A stretch of DNA of 64,000 nucleotides from Escherichia phage mistaenkt: sequence record MN850587.1; one strand, written 5' to 3'. The notes under the pieces were generated by a model. It did no database searches, was not told the origin of the DNA, and saw nothing but the letters and a program-made list of their open reading frames with translations. Each line of letters begins with the position of its first letter. The first letter of the stretch is position 1. Of the stretch, positions 630 through 11,256 are shown piece by piece. Made by a program: the position numbers and the translations under genes.

Positions 630-836
630 TTAATTCTTTTTGAAAATCTTCTCAACAAACTTTTTGAGTTTGCCGCTAATGTCAAGATGGATTTCTAGAA
701 TCTCAAAGATTACCCATACTAGCATAGCACCAAACAAAGCACCTTGTTTGATATCAATAAACAGGTTCACAAAGAAGAAACCGAGTACAATCATCGGTGC
801 ATCAACTGTGAAACCTTCCCACAAACGCTTAAGCAT
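630..836 (-). CDS. Small hydrophobic protein (68 aa), unknown function
   Basis: ORF track; hydrophobic core IVLGFFFVNLFIDIK...FGAMLVWVIF suggests membrane helices. Confidence 0.4.
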   Translation of the reverse strand: MLKRLWEGFTVDAPMIVLGFFFVNLFIDIKQGALFGAMLVWVIFEILEIHLDISGKLKKFVEKIFKKN

Positions 837-1071
837 TGTTCACCTCTGCCATAAAGTCTTGTAGTGTACCAACCGGAGTCAGGACAGTATCTTCAGTCTT
901 CATAATGAACGGCATCTGACGAACTGGCATCTTTGCAATATCCATCAGGTCTGACAGTTCATAGTCCTGTCCTAACATTCTTACAATGTGGTCAATACCA
1001 CGAGCCTTCGCAAAGTTCTTTGCAGTTTCACACTGAGGGCAACCAGTTTTGGAGTAAATTACGTAAGTCAT
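829..1071 (-). CDS. Glutaredoxin/NrdH-like redoxin (80 aa)
   Basis: N-terminal CPQC active-site motif (YSKTGCPQCETAK), size and position immediately upstream of nrdB. Confidence 0.75.
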   Translation of the reverse strand: MTYVIYSKTGCPQCETAKNFAKARGIDHIVRMLGQDYELSDLMDIAKMPVRQMPFIMKTEDTVLTPVGTLQDFMAEVNNA

Positions 1072-2144
1072 TAAGGAACCTCTAAATATCCTGAGTTTAA
1101 ATCATCTACAACGGTATTCAACAAGTACGCACCGTTTTGCTGTTCTTGGTTAGCATTCTGCTCTTTATCAATTTCCATCTTCTTAATCATGTATTTCAAA
1201 GGTGGTTCTTTAGGAGCTACGAAGTCTCTTGGAATACCAAACATATCATACAATGGTGCAGCATTATAGTAAACCCACTCATGTAGAAGTTTTGTATTCA
1301 AACCAACTACGGCACGACCTTCAGAGAAAATATAATAAGACCATTTCTCTTCACTTTCAACTACTTCATCAAGAATTACTTTGATTTCTGGAAGAACCTG
1401 ACGGAAAGCTTCTTGCCATTCTTCATCTTTCAAAGTCTCTTTCAGTGCTTCAATGTCAATCTTCGTGTGAAGGATTTCATCAAGCATAATTTTCTGTACT
1501 GCCTGAGCAATACCTTGGAACTTATCTTGTGCATCAAGTGCAAAGGTACATGCAAAGGATGCCATAAAGGATACACCTTCCAAGGCAGTTACTGCAAAGA
1601 GACCTTTCAAAATTACTTTGTGAAAGTGTAAAGGGTCTTTCTCAAGCAGTGAATCACGAACATAACTTAGACGATAGTTGATACCTTCGTCAAGTAATTC
1701 TTCCAGTGCTCTGTTCACAGTCTTCAGACGGTCTTGTACAGCAGCATTCTGGTTAATCTCATCAAGGATTGTCTCAGGATTCTTAATACACTGGCGAACA
1801 ATCTCTGAATAAGTCAAGGCATGAAGGTTCTCAATTTCAGATTGCTTCATGATTGCCGTTGCGTAGATATCATCAGAGATGAATGGTGCAAAAGCAAATG
1901 CCAAACTCTTAGCAACCTGTGTATCAGCTTCCCACTGCCACTTAATAATCTCAAGCATTACACCAGACATTGATTCTGGAACACTTTCAAAGTCTAATCG
2001 TGACTGCTCAAACGGGAACTCATCTTCAGACCAGTCTTGTGCTTTCTGCTGTTTGTACAGTTCAAAGATTTTTGGATAGTGTTTGTTGAGTGAGTCAAAA
2101 GTTTTTCGCTCACCACCTAAAAAGATTGGATGTTGGTTAATCAT
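1071..2144 (-). CDS. nrdB: Ribonucleotide reductase class Ia small (beta) subunit
   Basis: 357 aa; ferritin-like diiron/tyrosyl radical protein pattern (EIENLHALTYSEIV, HTKIDIEALK), adjacent to nrdA. Confidence 0.88.
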   Translation of the reverse strand: MINQHPIFLGGERKTFDSLNKHYPKIFELYKQQKAQDWSEDEFPFEQSRLDFESVPESMSGVMLEIIKWQWEADTQVAKSLAFAFAPFISDDIYATAIMKQSEIENLHALTYSEIVRQCIKNPETILDEINQNAAVQDRLKTVNRALEELLDEGINYRLSYVRDSLLEKDPLHFHKVILKGLFAVTALEGVSFMASFACTFALDAQDKFQGIAQAVQKIMLDEILHTKIDIEALKETLKDEEWQEAFRQVLPEIKVILDEVVESEEKWSYYIFSEGRAVVGLNTKLLHEWVYYNAAPLYDMFGIPRDFVAPKEPPLKYMIKKMEIDKEQNANQEQQNGAYLLNTVVDDLNSGYLEVP

Positions 2145-2453: not shown

Positions 2454-4688
2454 TTAAACTCCGCAACCTTCACAGTAAGCGTCTTGGAGTGCTGACTTAC
2501 CAACACCAATACGACTGTTAAGGTAGTACATAGTTTTCATCCCAACTGAGTTAGCATAAATCATGTACTTCAAAGCTTGCTCTAATGATACCTTTTTCGA
2601 TTTTGAATAGTCAACATAGAAATCTGAAGAGATAGCTTGACCAGTGAATTTTTGAACAATTGCATAGCAATCAATCATATCAAAGGTGTCAATATCCCAA
2701 GCAATTTCATAGACATACTTCAACTCTTCGTAATCTGGAACGATAAATAAAACGTTACCAGTTGCTGACTTCTTGGTTAAGATGAAGTCACGAATTGGGT
2801 ACAAACCATTTGTCGTATTAGTTGCCAGTGAAGAACTCTCATTAGGCATGTAAGCCTCAAGTACAGAGTTTCTGATACCACCATTTGCTTTAATACGGTC
2901 TGCTAAGTCATCCCAATCATAACGAAGTTTTGCATCGTGTTTTGTATCAATCTTCCTGTTAGCTGTCTTCGGAGGAACCCAACCTTCAGGATACTTGGTG
3001 AACTTCATATATTCAGGTACACCACGCTCTTTTGCAAGTCTTAGTGAAGCCTCATGCAGATAGTAAGAGTGCATCTCTGCAAGTTCATGTAGCTTCGTTT
3101 TACCTGCTCTTGAAGAATAGTTCACGTAGTTCTTCGCAAGGTAGTGAGCCACATTCGTAAGGCCAATCCCAACAGAACGACGTTTCTGAACGTGGTTACG
3201 CATTGACGGATACGGATAGTCCATAAGGTCAATAACGGAGTCAACCATTGCAAGAGCATAATAAGCAACGTCAGCGTATTCATCTTCTGTGATTCTCCCT
3301 GCTACCAGACTAGCTAAGAAGCAAAGAGCAACTTCACCATCTTCTTTAGGTGCTGTGTAACTGTAAAGGTCACGTTCATCTTCAAACCCGTAAACTGGCA
3401 GTATAATTTCCATGCACAAGTTAGACATTTTCAAAGCTTCTTTAAACGGTGTGTGTGTGTTCGCATTGTTCGTAAAGAACGGATACACACGACCTGTGGC
3501 ATAACGTTGCTGGATGAACAGCTTGGCAACTTCACGAGCCTTAACACGTTTATGCTTAACACCTGAATGCACTGCGTGACCGACTGCCATAGCAAACTCA
3601 TCAGCAGATGCTGTGTAGAACATGTCATAAAGCTTTGGAGCGTCCTTGTAAGAGAACAGCAACCAATCTGTGTCATACTGTACACACTGCCAGAAATAGT
3701 CATTTGCACCAAATGAATAGTCCATCTCATTAATACGCTTCGAAGGAACCGTTGTAGGATGCTTCAAACGCAGTAAATCTTCAATCTGCGGGTCTAGGGC
3801 AGTATAGAAGTTGTTAGCTGAACCACCACGACTCTTCTGCTTATTGGCCTCTACAGCAGCACGTACAAGCTTGTAGTAAGGAAGCTTACCCATGTGTTCA
3901 ATGGTGTTTTGACGAATACCATCACCAATTGTACGGGTCTCCATAAGCATACCAATACCAGCTTGCTTGGTGGTCATATCATAAGCTACCTTAGTAGCAA
4001 TGCCAAGAGACTCAGCAGTGTCATTAGCCTTGATTAAGCAGCATGACGCATAACCTGACTTAGTAGCACGTAAACCATTCAGATAAGGCGTAGGGGCGTT
4101 AATCTTCAGGTCAGACAGGTAAGTGTACAGCTTGATAACATCTTCCAGTCTACGGTGCTTAGGTTGTCTCTCAAAGGCTTTCATAGCCATACCCATAAAC
4201 ATAAATTGTGGGGATTCAAACAGACGACCTGACTTGATATCTCGGATGCCATACTTGTCACGGAACTGTTTCAGTACTGCATAACCGTAAGAGATATCTT
4301 TTGAGTGAACAATGTGACCTTGTAAATAGTCAATCTCTTGTTCGGTGTAATCCATGTGTTCCCACAAACCCATTTGCTCCATCTTCATAACGAAGTTGAA
4401 CAGTTGAGGAACTTTTGTGAAACCACCAAAGGCTTCTTTGTAGATGATACCAAGGAGTAATCGACCAGCCATATCAGAGTACTCTTGAGTCTGCTTATCA
4501 ATACAAACGTCAATCATAGCTTGGTGCATCTCTTTGGTAGAGCAACCTTCATAAACACGCTTCATGGCTTCCATAGTTACTTCTGACCAAATGATTCCTC
4601 GTTTGTCAGCCCATGAAGCCCATTTGTTTAAACGTTCTGGTTCGAATGGCACGATTGTACCGTCAGATTTGCGAATGGTCTTAATCAT
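2454..4688 (-). CDS. nrdA: Ribonucleotide reductase class Ia large (alpha) subunit
   Basis: 744 aa; N-terminal ATP-cone (MIKTIRKSDGTIVPFEPERLNKW), overall RNR large-subunit character, operon with nrdB and glutaredoxin. Confidence 0.9.
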   Translation of the reverse strand: MIKTIRKSDGTIVPFEPERLNKWASWADKRGIIWSEVTMEAMKRVYEGCSTKEMHQAMIDVCIDKQTQEYSDMAGRLLLGIIYKEAFGGFTKVPQLFNFVMKMEQMGLWEHMDYTEQEIDYLQGHIVHSKDISYGYAVLKQFRDKYGIRDIKSGRLFESPQFMFMGMAMKAFERQPKHRRLEDVIKLYTYLSDLKINAPTPYLNGLRATKSGYASCCLIKANDTAESLGIATKVAYDMTTKQAGIGMLMETRTIGDGIRQNTIEHMGKLPYYKLVRAAVEANKQKSRGGSANNFYTALDPQIEDLLRLKHPTTVPSKRINEMDYSFGANDYFWQCVQYDTDWLLFSYKDAPKLYDMFYTASADEFAMAVGHAVHSGVKHKRVKAREVAKLFIQQRYATGRVYPFFTNNANTHTPFKEALKMSNLCMEIILPVYGFEDERDLYSYTAPKEDGEVALCFLASLVAGRITEDEYADVAYYALAMVDSVIDLMDYPYPSMRNHVQKRRSVGIGLTNVAHYLAKNYVNYSSRAGKTKLHELAEMHSYYLHEASLRLAKERGVPEYMKFTKYPEGWVPPKTANRKIDTKHDAKLRYDWDDLADRIKANGGIRNSVLEAYMPNESSSLATNTTNGLYPIRDFILTKKSATGNVLFIVPDYEELKYVYEIAWDIDTFDMIDCYAIVQKFTGQAISSDFYVDYSKSKKVSLEQALKYMIYANSVGMKTMYYLNSRIGVGKSALQDAYCEGCGV

Positions 4689-4740: not shown

Positions 4741-5076
4741 TTAAATGCTAAAGATTTGTTTACTTTGCCAAAGTTCATAGAACTTGTGAGAAACCTTAGT
4801 CAGTGAAGCTTTTGACATTGCGTTGCAGTACCACCAACGTTTAGTTTCATCAAACAGTTTTTCAAGGTCTTCGTGCAGGTTATCTTCCATTCGTGAAATA
4901 ACAAAGTTACCACGCTTCTTACCAGTAACACGACCAAACTTGATATCACTTCGCCCTTTACAATCCTCTGTGTACATCACTATGTCACCGAACCGTAAAG
5001 GTTTGTCAAACTTATCTACTCCAAGTTCAACGCCAGCTTTTACATCTTCAATTGTAAGCTTATTTGCTTTAGACAT
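4741..5076 (-). CDS. Hypothetical protein (111 aa)
   Basis: ORF track only. Confidence 0.45.
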   Translation of the reverse strand: MSKANKLTIEDVKAGVELGVDKFDKPLRFGDIVMYTEDCKGRSDIKFGRVTGKKRGNFVISRMEDNLHEDLEKLFDETKRWWYCNAMSKASLTKVSHKFYELWQSKQIFSI

Positions 5077-5401
5077 GATATTTATCCAAGTTTCGTTTCA
5101 GGTAAAGCCACCCATCATCAGTGCGCTCAACACCCATGAACAGTGGAGCCGTTACAACCTTTCCAAACGTATTGCGATGTTGACAAATCTCATAAGAATA
5201 CGTTTTCTCAATGTTTAGGCCATATTTGAAAAGCACTGCTTTCAAGACCTGTTCATTATCCAGTAAAGTTTCTGGTGTCTCTCCATATTTTACTAACAGT
5301 GAATCATTCATAAACACTGTCATAGAGAGATTATAGTTTGAGAAATGGCTCTTTGGAGCCACCTCTTCAGTATTAATGTTCTGTGAATCCATTATAACCA
5401 A
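5069..5401 (-). CDS. Hypothetical protein (110 aa)
   Basis: ORF track only. Confidence 0.4.
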   Translation of the reverse strand: MVIMDSQNINTEEVAPKSHFSNYNLSMTVFMNDSLLVKYGETPETLLDNEQVLKAVLFKYGLNIEKTYSYEICQHRNTFGKVVTAPLFMGVERTDDGWLYLKRNLDKYHV

Positions 5402-6128
5402 CCCCTTTTAACCAATTCTTCAGGTTATTTGCATCATAGTTCAGTTTCGGGTATGAGGTCACATGGAACTTCTCACCGTCATAGTAAACAATATCTGCAA
5501 GCCATAATCCGTTTTCTCGGCAGAAGTCTTTGTCTGCTTTCGAACTGATTGGTCGAACTTCTGTGAAGTCACTCAATCCAAGGTCTTTCAAACTTCCTAC
5601 AAGACCTTTACAGATAACGCATGTGTCAGATGTTACCACGAACAATTCTTTGCTTTCAAGTTCCGCGATGAACTCTGCAAGCTGTACTTTAGGAAGATTA
5701 GACTGCTTCATAACCTTCTTATCAGACTCACGGATAATGGCGTACCATTCTTTTCCGTCAATCGTTGAAGCACGTACACGACATTCATCACCAGTACGCT
5801 TTTCGATATCTGCGAGACGTTTCAAAGCTTCTTCGTAGTTATCAGTATACTTCAGGTTGTTATTCTCACAGACTGCTTTCATAGCTCCGTCATGGTCATG
5901 CTGTGAAAGGTAAATCAGTCCATCAAGAACATACTGTAAATCTGCCTGAGCATCAAGAGCCTCAATAGGGTCTTTTTCATCAACAGCTTTCAAAAGCTCT
6001 TTGGCTTCTTCTAACATGCAAAGTGCTTGACTACGCATCGAAGACCAGTACTCAGGTGTATAAGGAGTCAACGGGGTCTTACCACAACGCTGATTCCAAG
6101 TTAGAACGGATTCTCTGGAATTAAACAT
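5373..6128 (-). CDS. Two-part protein: N-terminal all-alpha MazG-like NTP pyrophosphohydrolase-like region, C-terminal thioredoxin/glutaredoxin-like region with CxxC
   Basis: N-terminal acidic helix pattern LEEAKELLKAVDEKDPIEALDAQADLQYVLDGLIYL; C-terminal VVTSDTCVICKGLVG (CxxC); functional call is inference. Confidence 0.35.
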   Translation of the reverse strand: MFNSRESVLTWNQRCGKTPLTPYTPEYWSSMRSQALCMLEEAKELLKAVDEKDPIEALDAQADLQYVLDGLIYLSQHDHDGAMKAVCENNNLKYTDNYEEALKRLADIEKRTGDECRVRASTIDGKEWYAIIRESDKKVMKQSNLPKVQLAEFIAELESKELFVVTSDTCVICKGLVGSLKDLGLSDFTEVRPISSKADKDFCRENGLWLADIVYYDGEKFHVTSYPKLNYDANNLKNWLKGVGYNGFTEH

Positions 6129-6337
6129 TAAACCTCCTGAAACAGTTTCTGCTGAGACTCAATATAATCCAGTCTGCCTTTCAGTTCAACACGTTTGTTA
6201 ATCAGGTGCTGAATCTGGGACTCAAGAGCCTCCATTTCGGACTCCGTAGCTGCTTTAGCTTTGACAATTGCATCTTTCAGTGCTGCAATGTGGCTGTCAA
6301 TTTTAGCTACGTGGTCATTCTTAATTTTGTTAAACAT
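6128..6337 (-). CDS. Small coiled-coil protein (69 aa)
   Basis: ORF track; heptad-like charged/hydrophobic pattern. Confidence 0.4.
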   Translation of the reverse strand: MFNKIKNDHVAKIDSHIAALKDAIVKAKAATESEMEALESQIQHLINKRVELKGRLDYIESQQKLFQEV

Positions 6338-6341
6338 AATC

Positions 6342-6842
6342 TTATTCTCTCTCGTTAAGTTTCATGATTTTATGGATTCTCTTCTCAGCATCTTCATAAG
6401 TCTCTTTGGTAAGAAACTTGATTGCTGCAATGTTTGCATTGTAGAAGAGTCGAAGCTTGGAGTCAATCCTTTTTGTCATGACGTCAAACTTATGTTGGAG
6501 GTTAGCTTCTCCGTAGACCAACCCACCTCGCGTATAATAAGTTTGCACAATATAGAAGTCAAACTCTTTTTCACCGAAAGTTTCAATATCTTTCTTAATG
6601 TACTCAGAAGAGGTCTGGTAAACCATCCAGTCACTCTCTTTTGTCACAATCTTACGTCTGGCCTTTCCAGCTACTTTCTTCTTGGTGACATTGTTAAACT
6701 GCTTCTTACCAATGTAATACTGTCCAGTCTTTTTGCAGTACACTAAGTAAACGAAACCAAAATACTTAGCGGGGTCAATCTCCCCGCACAGTGAAATCCA
6801 ATGCCCATATTCAGGGCAATTGCCAAAACCTTTAATCTTCAT
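6342..6842 (-). CDS. GIY-YIG family homing endonuclease (166 aa)
   Basis: GFVYLVYCKKTGQYYIGKK matches the GIY-(10-11 aa)-YIG motif; free-standing between replication genes. Confidence 0.65.
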   Translation of the reverse strand: MKIKGFGNCPEYGHWISLCGEIDPAKYFGFVYLVYCKKTGQYYIGKKQFNNVTKKKVAGKARRKIVTKESDWMVYQTSSEYIKKDIETFGEKEFDFYIVQTYYTRGGLVYGEANLQHKFDVMTKRIDSKLRLFYNANIAAIKFLTKETYEDAEKRIHKIMKLNERE

Positions 6843-9287: not shown

Positions 9288-11256
9288 CTTCTCCGTCTTC
9301 GTTTAATACTGGTGGAATAGTATAACTTTGACGTTGCTCTTGAGTGTAAATCTCTCCAGTCTCACGGTCAAAGACTTCATCATCATAATGCGGCATAGAG
9401 TCATCGTAGTGGTCATCGGCTTCACCAATACCAAACTGCTGACGAATATTCTCTGCTGCACCATCAATATCAACACCACTACCAGCAGCCTTGATAAGAC
9501 GGCCTGTATCTGGATTATACCAAGTGTGACCAGCAATACCAGTTGACTTACCATGACGACGACATTTCGTTAACTTGATTTTGGTCAAGTTTTTCTTAAC
9601 AGGGTCTGGGTCAACCTTGTTACGCATTAACAGAATGTTGTTCATGGAAATCTGGAAGTATGCACCAGAACCCTTGATATCCTCTTCAGAAATATCACCA
9701 CCTTCAGAGTTAGCCTTCTGACCACCTGCACTCTTACGAACGTGACAGACGTTTACCTGTGCATATTGGTAACGCTTGCAACGACGCAACAGTTCAGACA
9801 AAACTTCTTCTTCATCCGTATCAGAACGTGACAGAGCCAACGTGATAGGGTCAAGAATAATAATCTTACAGTCTAAGCTGTTAACCAGATAGTCAACAAA
9901 CTCTAACAGGTTATCTTGGTCGATTGCCCCTTGGTGGTCAACGATATGGATACGACGACCAGCAGACAACTCAGCATGTGCAACCTTGATTTCATCCCAA
10001 TTACGTTCATCGTAAGGAATCTCTGAAATCTGTTTGCTAAGGTGAATTGCACAGAGCATCTCCATTAACTCTTCGTAAGTATCTTCTACAGGAATCACAC
10101 CGATATTGTAATCAGTTTCCTTCCAAGCAGTATAAATCATTTCACGAGTGTAAGCTGATTTACCTACTGAAGATGGTGCTGCCAGAGTTGTAATCTCACC
10201 TAAACCGTAACCGCCATAAGTCAGTCTGTTCAAATCTCCGAAAGATTCTGGGAATGGAATCAGTGGAATCTGACCACGATTCTTCATTGCCTCAAAACCA
10301 TCTGCGAAGTTCTTGATACCAGCAGGGCAGTATCGAGGTGCATTATAGATACGCTGTTTAAATCCTTCCAGTACTGTATCTTTCTCTTTATAAAACTTAG
10401 TCCACCATTCATTCAGGTCTTTGACACCTTCTGGATACTGGAATAAGCGAACCTTCTCAATCGGAAGAATACCAGCAGCCTCTTTAGTGGCTTTTGCACC
10501 TGCTTCGTCGTTATCAAAGCACAGGTAAATCTCATCAAATGATGTGATGTACTGATAGTTGTCTTTGATAGACTTAATGTTTGCACCTGATGGAACAGAT
10601 ACGTGACAGTAATTCTTACGACGAGACTTATCTTTAATTGCCAGAGAAGTCATGTAGATTGCTGTAGCACATTCCATCTCACCTTCCCAGATGAAGAGAC
10701 GGTTACCACCTTCTGGAGCAATCCATGAACCGAACATTGCCAGTTCACCTTTAATGTCACCTACACCACCTGAGAAGTCTTTCAGCTTACCACGAAGATG
10801 CTCTTTCGGATGGTCTTCTGGGTAACGGTGACGAACACGGTAACCTACATGCTCAAGCTTTCCATTTTCATCTTTCTTGTAAGTTGGGTAAAAGTGTGCA
10901 TCAATTTCACCTTCACCATCTACATCAACCTTGATACCAAGACGGTCAAGCACCTTTGCAGGAATCTTACGGTCTTTCAAATCCATTGCTTCAAGGTTAT
11001 CTTTTACATCGTCTAAATCCATACCACGGAAAGTACGATTTTTATTGTCTGAACCAGTAGAATAAGTACTCACAATTTGCCCTTTATCAAAATCCCACTC
11101 TGGAAAACCCTTGTTGCAACTAAAGCAAGTCATCGAATAAGAATCATCGTCATGATGATAGATTGAACCAGCATCTGATGAACCACACTTAGGGCAAGCA
11201 CAATGACCAACAAACTGACCAGCTTCCTTCAATTTACGACCTTTAGACATTAGCAC
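9259..11256 (-). CDS. Bifunctional DNA primase-helicase (zinc-ribbon/TOPRIM primase fused to DnaB-like helicase)
   Basis: 665 aa; N-terminal Cys4 zinc ribbon (CACPKCGSSD...CFSCNKG), central TOPRIM-like region, C-terminal Walker A (LAAPSSVGKSAYT) and RecA-like helicase motifs. Confidence 0.88.
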   Translation of the reverse strand: MLMSKGRKLKEAGQFVGHCACPKCGSSDAGSIYHHDDDSYSMTCFSCNKGFPEWDFDKGQIVSTYSTGSDNKNRTFRGMDLDDVKDNLEAMDLKDRKIPAKVLDRLGIKVDVDGEGEIDAHFYPTYKKDENGKLEHVGYRVRHRYPEDHPKEHLRGKLKDFSGGVGDIKGELAMFGSWIAPEGGNRLFIWEGEMECATAIYMTSLAIKDKSRRKNYCHVSVPSGANIKSIKDNYQYITSFDEIYLCFDNDEAGAKATKEAAGILPIEKVRLFQYPEGVKDLNEWWTKFYKEKDTVLEGFKQRIYNAPRYCPAGIKNFADGFEAMKNRGQIPLIPFPESFGDLNRLTYGGYGLGEITTLAAPSSVGKSAYTREMIYTAWKETDYNIGVIPVEDTYEELMEMLCAIHLSKQISEIPYDERNWDEIKVAHAELSAGRRIHIVDHQGAIDQDNLLEFVDYLVNSLDCKIIILDPITLALSRSDTDEEEVLSELLRRCKRYQYAQVNVCHVRKSAGGQKANSEGGDISEEDIKGSGAYFQISMNNILLMRNKVDPDPVKKNLTKIKLTKCRRHGKSTGIAGHTWYNPDTGRLIKAAGSGVDIDGAAENIRQQFGIGEADDHYDDSMPHYDDEVFDRETGEIYTQEQRQSYTIPPVLNEDGEDDDCPFETD

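Follow-up and report, generated by a model that had tools for sequence, protein, structure and literature searches.

A MazG-like pyrophosphatase of Felix-O1-like phages is fused to a divergent glutaredoxin-like domain with an invariant CxxC motif and no cis-proline

The window analysed here is the whole 64,000-nucleotide stretch of Escherichia phage mistaenkt (record MN850587.1), a Suspvirus (Ounavirinae, Felix-O1-like) phage whose nucleotide identity to the Escherichia phages phiSUSP1, SUSP2 and EP1 of the same subfamily and genus is 95-97%. All coordinates are window positions and lie on the minus strand unless marked otherwise. The subject of this analysis is the gene at 5373-6128, whose product joins a MazG-like pyrophosphatase module to a second domain related to glutaredoxins (Grx) and NrdH-redoxins. 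The original prediction, made from the sequence alone, had placed an open reading frame (ORF) here without giving its strand, and had proposed a fusion of a MazG-like region to a thioredoxin-like region containing a CxxC motif. The ORF is real and lies on the minus strand, and the fusion is borne out by Pfam, by profile searches against the PDB and by hhalign comparison with NrdH and Grx, which agree with one another. The protein is 96-99% identical to its phiSUSP1 and SUSP2 orthologues, which are annotated “MazG-like pyrophosphatase”; this is the RefSeq label, and other records carry “phosphoribosyl-ATP pyrophosphohydrolase” or “hypothetical”. The gene and the parts of its product, with positions in amino acids (aa), are as follows.

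5373-6128, minus strand: complete coding sequence, MazG-like pyrophosphatase plus Grx/NrdH-like domain; ATG start, 251 aa (ORF list)
5679-6128, minus strand: all-alpha nucleoside triphosphate (NTP) pyrophosphohydrolase module, aa 1-150 (AlphaFold2 model, Foldseek, stand-alone relatives)
5871-6095, minus strand: Pfam PF01503 (PRA-PH) match, aa 12-86; 31.4 bits, cut-off 21.3, E 2.6e-7
5940-6011, minus strand: putative acidic metal-binding helices, E40-E41-x-x-E44 ... D59(/E60)-x-x-x-D63 (conservation and the motif in PMC10014863)
5706-5732, minus strand: basic cluster R133, K138, K141 (with K93), possibly binding the triphosphate; conserved without exception in the 36 family representatives
5649-5678, minus strand: low-confidence linker, aa 151-160; block with a predicted local distance difference test score (pLDDT) of 56, residues 157-159 below 50
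5394-5648, minus strand: divergent NrdH/glutaredoxin-like thioredoxin-fold domain, aa 161-245; topology beta-alpha-beta-alpha-beta-beta-alpha
5610-5621, minus strand: CxxC motif C170-V-I-C173 at the start of helix alpha1; reads TGC GTT ATC TGT
5493-5495, minus strand: D212 in place of the thioredoxin-fold cis-proline; aligns to the Pro of NrdH and Grx

The acidic helical pattern that had been noticed near the N-terminus coincides with the PF01503 match, and the family members P0033 and P0044 also match PF03819 (MazG). Proteins of the MazG superfamily have four acidic metal ligands in the arrangement ExxE ... (E/D)xxD (PMC10014863). Across 36 family representatives E40, E41, E44, D63, G70, H79, N90, K93, R133, K138 and K141 are invariant, and Q34 is conserved in all 35 that have a residue there; the fourth acidic ligand is D59 in 34 of the 36 and E60 in the other two, and the spacing is slightly non-canonical. 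Basic residues that bind the triphosphate have been described for MazG proteins and dimeric dUTPases, being Lys/Arg/Lys in the C. jejuni dUTPase (PMC10014863), and the basic cluster of the fusion protein may be analogous to them.

The full-length AlphaFold2 model, built from a 10-sequence alignment (mean pLDDT 82.5, predicted template-modelling score (pTM) 0.50), comprises in this part a bundle of helices (aa 25-112) and, after it, a beta-hairpin (aa 116-133), with helices 25-50, 54-75 and 79-91 predicted at pLDDT values mostly of 85-96 and one block at 73. The best solved-structure match found by Foldseek is DR2231 of Deinococcus radiodurans (2yf3 and 5hva, prob 1.0, TMt about 0.5-0.6), and DR2231 and T. 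maritima MazG together match at prob 0.99-1.0. The phage module shares with DR2231, which belongs to the DR2231-like/dimeric-dUTPase branch, an all-alpha core, an EExxE...D acidic site and conserved basic residues, but identity to this branch is only about 18-23%, and the phage protein carries an inserted helix (aa 98-112) as well as the beta-hairpin. Among the viral models of BFVD the matches are stand-alone “DR2231-like NTP pyrophosphohydrolases” of 150-175 aa, aligned over about 155 columns with target-normalised TM scores of 0.7-0.78. DR2231 and the viral stand-alone relatives, at about 140-175 aa, have no second domain, unlike the fusion protein. The stand-alone relatives P0029-31 (137-141 aa) align through the R-x-SD-x-K-I-M-K segment, so that the pyrophosphatase module reaches about aa 150, or about 60% of the protein; the original assignment of the N-terminal half to MazG was therefore correct as to the identity of the module and too short as to its extent. 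A single-sequence phmmer search of the fusion protein against the PDB gave chance matches only, and an NCBIfam search gave none. The module is a member of the all-alpha NTP pyrophosphohydrolase superfamily, with which it agrees in every feature examined: family model, fold and acidic ligands.

In the full-length model the C-terminal residues 162-242 form a beta-alpha-beta-alpha-beta-beta-alpha fold in which C170 immediately precedes the helix at 171-182, and when this domain was modelled alone from an 11-sequence alignment it reached a pLDDT of 85.3 and a pTM of 0.76, compared with 0.50 for the full-length model. Profile searches against the PDB, which returned 25 and 21 matches, found mostly glutaredoxins and NrdH-redoxins with their CxxC in register, and the alignment of the C-domain matched a small NrdH/Grx alignment by hhalign at 96.9% probability (E 1.6e-10, 61 columns). 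Known NrdH-redoxins and glutaredoxins (4fiw, 1r7h, 1h75; PF00462) have the same fold and motif position. An exhaustive HMMER search with the C-domain profile over 1.84 billion representatives found as its best stand-alone match P0038, a 93-aa CVQC protein (E 9e-6) that is itself a genuine Pfam Glutaredoxin (PF00462, 45 bits) and has a helix-2 motif resembling the S-x-A-D-x-x-F of the C-domain. The window protein has no Pfam match in this region, even when the domain is submitted in isolation, and hence none to PF00462; the C-domain of an Erwinia-phage homologue scores 20.5 bits, under the cut-off of 22.9, and those of distant homologues have only sub-threshold Glutaredoxin or Thioredoxin_2 matches. 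These absent or sub-threshold scores explain why the domain has been left unannotated.

The CVIC motif does lie in a thioredoxin-like context, as had been proposed: C170-V-I-C173 aligns in register with the CVQC and CPYC of NrdH and Grx, after strand beta1 of the thioredoxin fold and at the N-terminal end of helix alpha1. A CxxC arises in 15.7% of shuffles of the fusion protein, which has seven cysteines, so a single sequence is weak evidence for a functional motif. Despite this rate, a chance occurrence is ruled out by the structural position of the motif together with its conservation, since C170 and C173 are invariant in all 36 representatives, down to 23% identity within the C-domain, whereas the middle residues are free to vary (ten types at the first position, five at the second). 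A 17-sequence alignment reaching 25% identity contains only 16 invariant columns, which include both cysteines as well as E40, E41, E44, D63, K93, R133, K138 and K141, and the invariance of these residues holds in the 36 sequences. Among the 36 representatives divergence has proceeded at similar rates in the N- and C-modules, and these comparisons indicate that both modules are under selection.

The pattern of conservation in the C-domain bears directly on the suggestion that it is a degenerate structural or docking domain, in which the thioredoxin fold would act as a scaffold or interaction module while the CxxC would stabilize the protein, for example through a structural disulfide or by capping a helix. 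The loss of the cis-proline described below, the lack of a Pfam glutaredoxin match in the window protein (with the Erwinia homologue below the cut-off) and the presence of the non-catalytic thioredoxin-fold proteins KaiB, SasA and MglA among the fold matches would all agree with such a role. A cysteine pair that is invariant even at 23% domain identity around freely varying middle residues is, however, characteristic of a functional dithiol or ligand pair, and a structural disulfide would be improbable in a reducing cytoplasm; a purely structural domain is consequently regarded as very unlikely.

Canonical members of the Grx and NrdH groups can be recognized by further motifs, namely the glutathione (GSH)-binding motifs TVP and GG-x-dD and the NrdH motif WSGFRP(D/E). 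Neither the GSH-binding nor the WSGFRP-type motifs were visible by eye in the C-domain and NrdH/Grx alignments, and the segments of the C-domain aligned to these positions read L-A-D and T-S-Y-P-K-L-N-Y-D. The residue aligned to the cis-proline is D in 30 of the representatives, C in three (the Erwinia-type members have Cys here), S in two, Q in one and P in none. Across thioredoxin-fold groups the cis-proline, which opens strand beta3, is described as more conserved than the CxxC itself, and it is considered part of the substrate-binding site (PMC2757866). It possibly also prevents the binding of metal by the CxxC thiolates, as Su et al. 2007 are cited in PMC2757866. The loss of this residue beside an invariant CxxC is unusual. 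It is the missing cis-proline, together with the lack of visible GSH-binding or NrdH motifs, that sets the domain apart from its relatives, which it also differs from in scoring below the PF00462 cut-off or not at all and in never standing alone: the C-domain is NrdH/Grx-like by descent and fold, and is not a canonical glutaredoxin or NrdH.

If the cis-proline does preclude metal binding, then its absence alongside the CxxC, both in 36 of 36 members, could mean that each MazG protomer presents one CxxC and that two of these bind Zn or a [2Fe-2S] cluster, so that oligomerization or activity would respond to redox state or iron. Solved MazG structures are reported to be dimeric or tetrameric (PMC10014863), the fold matches include the cluster-holding dimeric Grx2 and GrxC1 (2ht9, 2e7p), and the Cys of the Erwinia-type members at the cis-proline position is also in keeping with a metal site. 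This explanation is nevertheless purely inferential, many thioredoxin folds without the cis-proline bind no metal, and each chain offers only two invariant cysteines, C203 being present in 32 of the 36 representatives; metal bridging is accordingly considered distinctly improbable.

The distribution of the protein shows how closely its two parts are associated. Along its full length the protein matches a single family, phrog_2144 (E 4.3e-94, with aa 1-250 aligned to all 290 profile positions), and as this is the fusion family itself, the protein is not assigned as a whole to a single unrelated family. Searches with tblastn found the fusion protein in 304 phage records, 301 of which cover at least 80% of the query; the hosts include Escherichia, Salmonella, Erwinia, Shigella, Citrobacter, Pectobacterium and Hafnia, and every record inspected is Felix-O1-like. 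That two genes have been joined by an assembly or frameshift error is ruled out by the occurrence of the same 244-251-aa ORF in more than 300 phage genomes. At E<1e-10, the C-domain profile search recovered only six clusters at 50% identity, with proteins of 244-251 aa and the domain at about residues 147-250. Beyond these there is one remote fused homologue (P0044, 245 aa, with CGLC), and the remaining weak matches are repeat proteins. Among the viral fold models, only that of a family member in Pectobacterium phage Wc4 matches the full architecture. Within the limits of detection, therefore, the C-domain occurs only fused to the MazG module and only in the Felix-O1-like lineage.

Several BFVD matches of about 250-270 aa, including those from Pseudomonas phage SM1 and Aeromonas phage phiA8-29, were considered as analogous two-domain proteins and were dropped, since their query-normalized TM scores are no different from those of matches to the N-domain only; the PB1 orthologue (gp51) is a single-domain MazG of 184 aa. 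Stand-alone phage MazG proteins such as PB1 gp51 and the MazG of cyanophage S-PM2 (PMC6850273) resemble the fusion protein in being viral all-alpha NTP pyrophosphohydrolases encoded in replication or nucleotide modules, and differ from it in lacking a thioredoxin-fold domain. A Rosetta-stone check of the stand-alone MazG relatives P0030 and P0031 gave no support for a functional link, neither gene adjoining Grx or ribonucleotide reductase (RNR) genes. No description was found in the literature of a fusion of MazG to a thioredoxin-like or glutaredoxin domain, or of this PRA-PH architecture in Felix O1. The family thus already stands in the catalogues as a MazG-like pyrophosphatase of phages (phrog_2144), and what appears undescribed is its Grx-like second domain with a CxxC and no cis-proline.

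The surroundings of the gene are relevant to the choice between the remaining explanations, and the neighbouring features are listed here.

6133-6138, minus strand: Shine-Dalgarno AGGAGG, read from the sequence, 5 nt upstream of the fusion gene start
6128-6337, minus strand: upstream 69-aa ORF, phrog_4442; weak coiled-coil-type Pfam matches; translationally coupled to the fusion gene
5069-5392, minus strand: small co-conserved ORF, phrog_4007; overlaps the 3' end of the fusion gene by 20 nt
2454-4688, minus strand: nrdA, class I RNR (ORF list and RefSeq annotation of phiSUSP1)
1071-2144, minus strand: nrdB, class I RNR (ORF list and RefSeq annotation of phiSUSP1)
829-1071, minus strand: canonical glutaredoxin, a separate gene directly downstream of nrdB; PF00462 29.7 bits, cut-off 22.9

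The ATG of the fusion gene at 6126-6128 overlaps the TAA stop of the preceding ORF (TAATG), and its 3' end overlaps the next ORF, so that the gene is a member of a tightly packed co-directional block. The order of the block is exonuclease, SegE-like GIY-YIG protein, small ORF, fusion gene, two small ORFs, nrdA, small ORF, nrdB, glutaredoxin, small ORF and nrdD, and the nucleotide-metabolism setting that had been described for the gene is thereby confirmed. This replication and deoxynucleoside triphosphate (dNTP) block surrounds the fusion gene in all relatives examined.

Several features of the block are worth recording in their own right. The small ORFs 5069-5392 (phrog_4007) and 4741-5076 (phrog_3358) always follow the fusion gene and may encode functional partners of its product; the first of them also matches, in part, phrog_3506, which is labelled “thymidylate synthase” (E 2e-12). 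The 166-aa product of 6342-6842 (minus strand) is a SegE-like GIY-YIG nuclease (PF19835, 95 bits) that RefSeq and phrog_447 label “NAD synthetase”, probably a propagated mis-annotation. In all the examined loci that carry the fusion (L006, L007, L009) its gene holds the same syntenic position behind that of the exonuclease, a constancy of place that is not usual for homing endonucleases, which are mobile. In the metagenomic relative L007 the fusion block and nrdA are separated by an inserted Dam-like (MethyltransfD12) methyltransferase gene at 9440-10252. The record OK283618.1 (“Listeria phage LPML1”) falls taxonomically in Ounavirinae, shows complete Felix-O1 synteny and carries nrdA and nrdB of the enterobacterial type, and the Listeria host given for it appears doubtful. 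An antisense ORF of 102 aa at 5530-5838 (plus strand) within the fusion gene has no sign of coding and is probably spurious.

The location of the fusion gene beside the nrd genes had led to the proposal that its product might be a dedicated reductant for an RNR. In such a role the NrdH-like CxxC domain would pass electrons to the C-terminal cysteines of phage or host NrdA, and the fusion would co-localize two enzymes of the dNTP pool, in the manner of a T4-style dNTP-synthetase complex. The nearest sequence homologues of the C-domain are NrdH-redoxins, which are specific reductants of class Ib RNR, and the RNR genes lie two to three small ORFs downstream of the fusion gene in Suspvirus, Kolesnikvirus, LPML1 and metagenomic relatives. 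The phage NrdA (2454-4688, minus strand) ends in ...YCEGCGV, and the cysteine pair of this CEGCGV terminus is of the kind reduced by thioredoxin or Grx in class Ia RNRs. A precedent also exists in the NrdB-Grx fusion of Facklamia ignava (PMC6187632), in which a Grx-type CxxC domain is likewise joined to a deoxynucleotide-metabolism enzyme, with RNR genes as the context; in that case, however, a canonical Grx is attached to the radical subunit of RNR itself and has been shown to be an efficient reductant of RNR (PMC6187632), whereas the phage fusion has a pyrophosphatase partner and an atypical Grx-like domain.

Four observations weaken the proposal of an RNR reductant. First, such an activity would be redundant with the canonical Grx encoded beside nrdB, which has a CPQC motif and, in the alignment with NrdH and Grx, a Pro at the cis-proline position. 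Second, all 36 members lack the cis-proline, a residue of the substrate-binding site. Third, no WSGFRP-type or GSH-binding motif was seen by eye in the alignment. Fourth, the fusion and its CxxC are kept, at 41% identity and with CFIC, in Yersinia phage vB_YenM_P778 (PP693300.1), whose complete genome contains no detectable NrdA, NrdB or Grx and only the class III NrdD/NrdG. The role of a dedicated RNR reductant is, on this evidence, unlikely. The Felix-O1-like phage P778, which has lost the class I RNR and glutaredoxin, also retains ThyA and carries TerC and TerD tellurite-resistance-type genes, and a homologue of the small ORF 5069-5392 (40% identity) is kept beside its fusion gene.

The other possibility raised at the outset, a redox-coupled nucleotide-sanitizing enzyme, is compatible with these results and unproven. 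The interpretation favoured here, which is judged somewhat more likely than not, is that the protein is a putative (d)NTP pyrophosphatase, possibly acting on dUTP, with a thiol or metal site in cis, and that its C-domain is not the general reductant of the phage RNR. The first module would hydrolyse (d)NTP to (d)NMP and pyrophosphate, with dUTP as the most plausible substrate and/or non-canonical dNTPs. The dUMP so produced could feed the phage thymidylate synthase while uracil is kept out of phage DNA, a need suggested by the apparent lack of a trimeric dUTPase in the phage. The second module would supply a functional thiol site, either redox-active or metal-binding, which would work in cis by regulating the pyrophosphatase or by tethering it to the dNTP-synthesis machinery, and would not be a general reductant of the phage class I RNR; that it acts in cis with the pyrophosphatase is suggested by the obligate nature of the fusion.

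The phiSUSP1 genome is annotated with thymidylate synthase (ThyA), dihydrofolate reductase, dNMP kinase, NrdAB, NrdDG and glutaredoxin, and with no dUTPase, and tblastn with an E. coli Dut query gave nothing better than E of about 3. DR2231 is exclusively active on dUTP, according to the title of a reference quoted in PMC10014863. Fold similarity and the lack of another dUTPase in the genome both bear on whether the protein might belong to the dUTP-specific DR2231-like subgroup, and a dUTP-directed pyrophosphatase is the most economical guess, given this lack and the resemblance to DR2231.

The resemblance to the dUTP-specific DR2231, as the best structural match, and the position of the gene within the dNTP-synthesis and replication block both argue against a further alternative, in which the MazG module serves in counter-defence by degrading a signalling nucleotide of the host, for instance (p)ppGpp or a second messenger of defence, and not dNTPs. 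Support for it comes from a Felixounavirus evolution study, in which the mazG-like gene is named in passing as a possible counter-defence gene and is reported to have acquired mutations during co-evolution (PMC13155118). A cyanophage MazG is, by the title of the paper, a pyrophosphohydrolase unable to hydrolyse magic-spot nucleotides (PMC6850273), and PADLOC returned no match for the fusion protein; a counter-defence or alarmone-hydrolase role therefore appears most improbable.

Several considerations also weigh against the favoured interpretation of a (d)NTP pyrophosphatase with an in-cis site. Substrate specificity cannot be read from the sequence, and enzymes of the MazG family accept many substrates, including dUTP, 5-OH-dCTP, (p)ppGpp and PR-ATP (phosphoribosyl-ATP). 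The third acidic position of the motif is mostly D59, and E60 in two members, so that the motif is not the textbook ExxE...ExxD. The geometry of the two domains relative to each other is not confidently predicted (pTM 0.50, linker pLDDT about 56), and this confidence is too low to support a structural argument for a coupling between the CxxC and the active site. The conserved RNR synteny and the nearest homology to NrdH still fit an RNR-directed role, and the target of the C-domain could be the host NrdAB. Finally, it is from annotation and one tblastn search that a trimeric Dut is taken to be absent.

A more specific and rather speculative extension, which has little more than an outside chance of being correct, is that the cis-proline-less CxxC domains of the two protomers of a MazG dimer jointly bind [2Fe-2S] or another metal, through which a dUTP or dNTP pyrophosphatase would sense the redox or iron state of the cell. 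If this were true, the protein would represent a nucleotide-pool enzyme of a new class, gated by Fe-S or redox state, and would show in nature the kind of metal binding against which the thioredoxin cis-proline is proposed to guard.

The finding opens no major unsolved question, and the protein family was already catalogued. Felix-O1-like phages are widely used in the typing and biocontrol of Salmonella and E. coli, and one of their conserved core genes has so far been labelled only “MazG-like pyrophosphatase” or “phosphoribosyl-ATP pyrophosphohydrolase”. The family constitutes a natural experiment on the thioredoxin fold, in which the CxxC is invariant and the usually more conserved cis-proline is absent, and it thus bears on the proposal that this proline keeps the CxxC thiolates from binding metal. 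For the phages themselves, the strictly conserved second domain with its CxxC leads to the testable hypothesis that nucleotide-pool sanitation or dUMP supply may be coupled to thiol or metal chemistry during infection.

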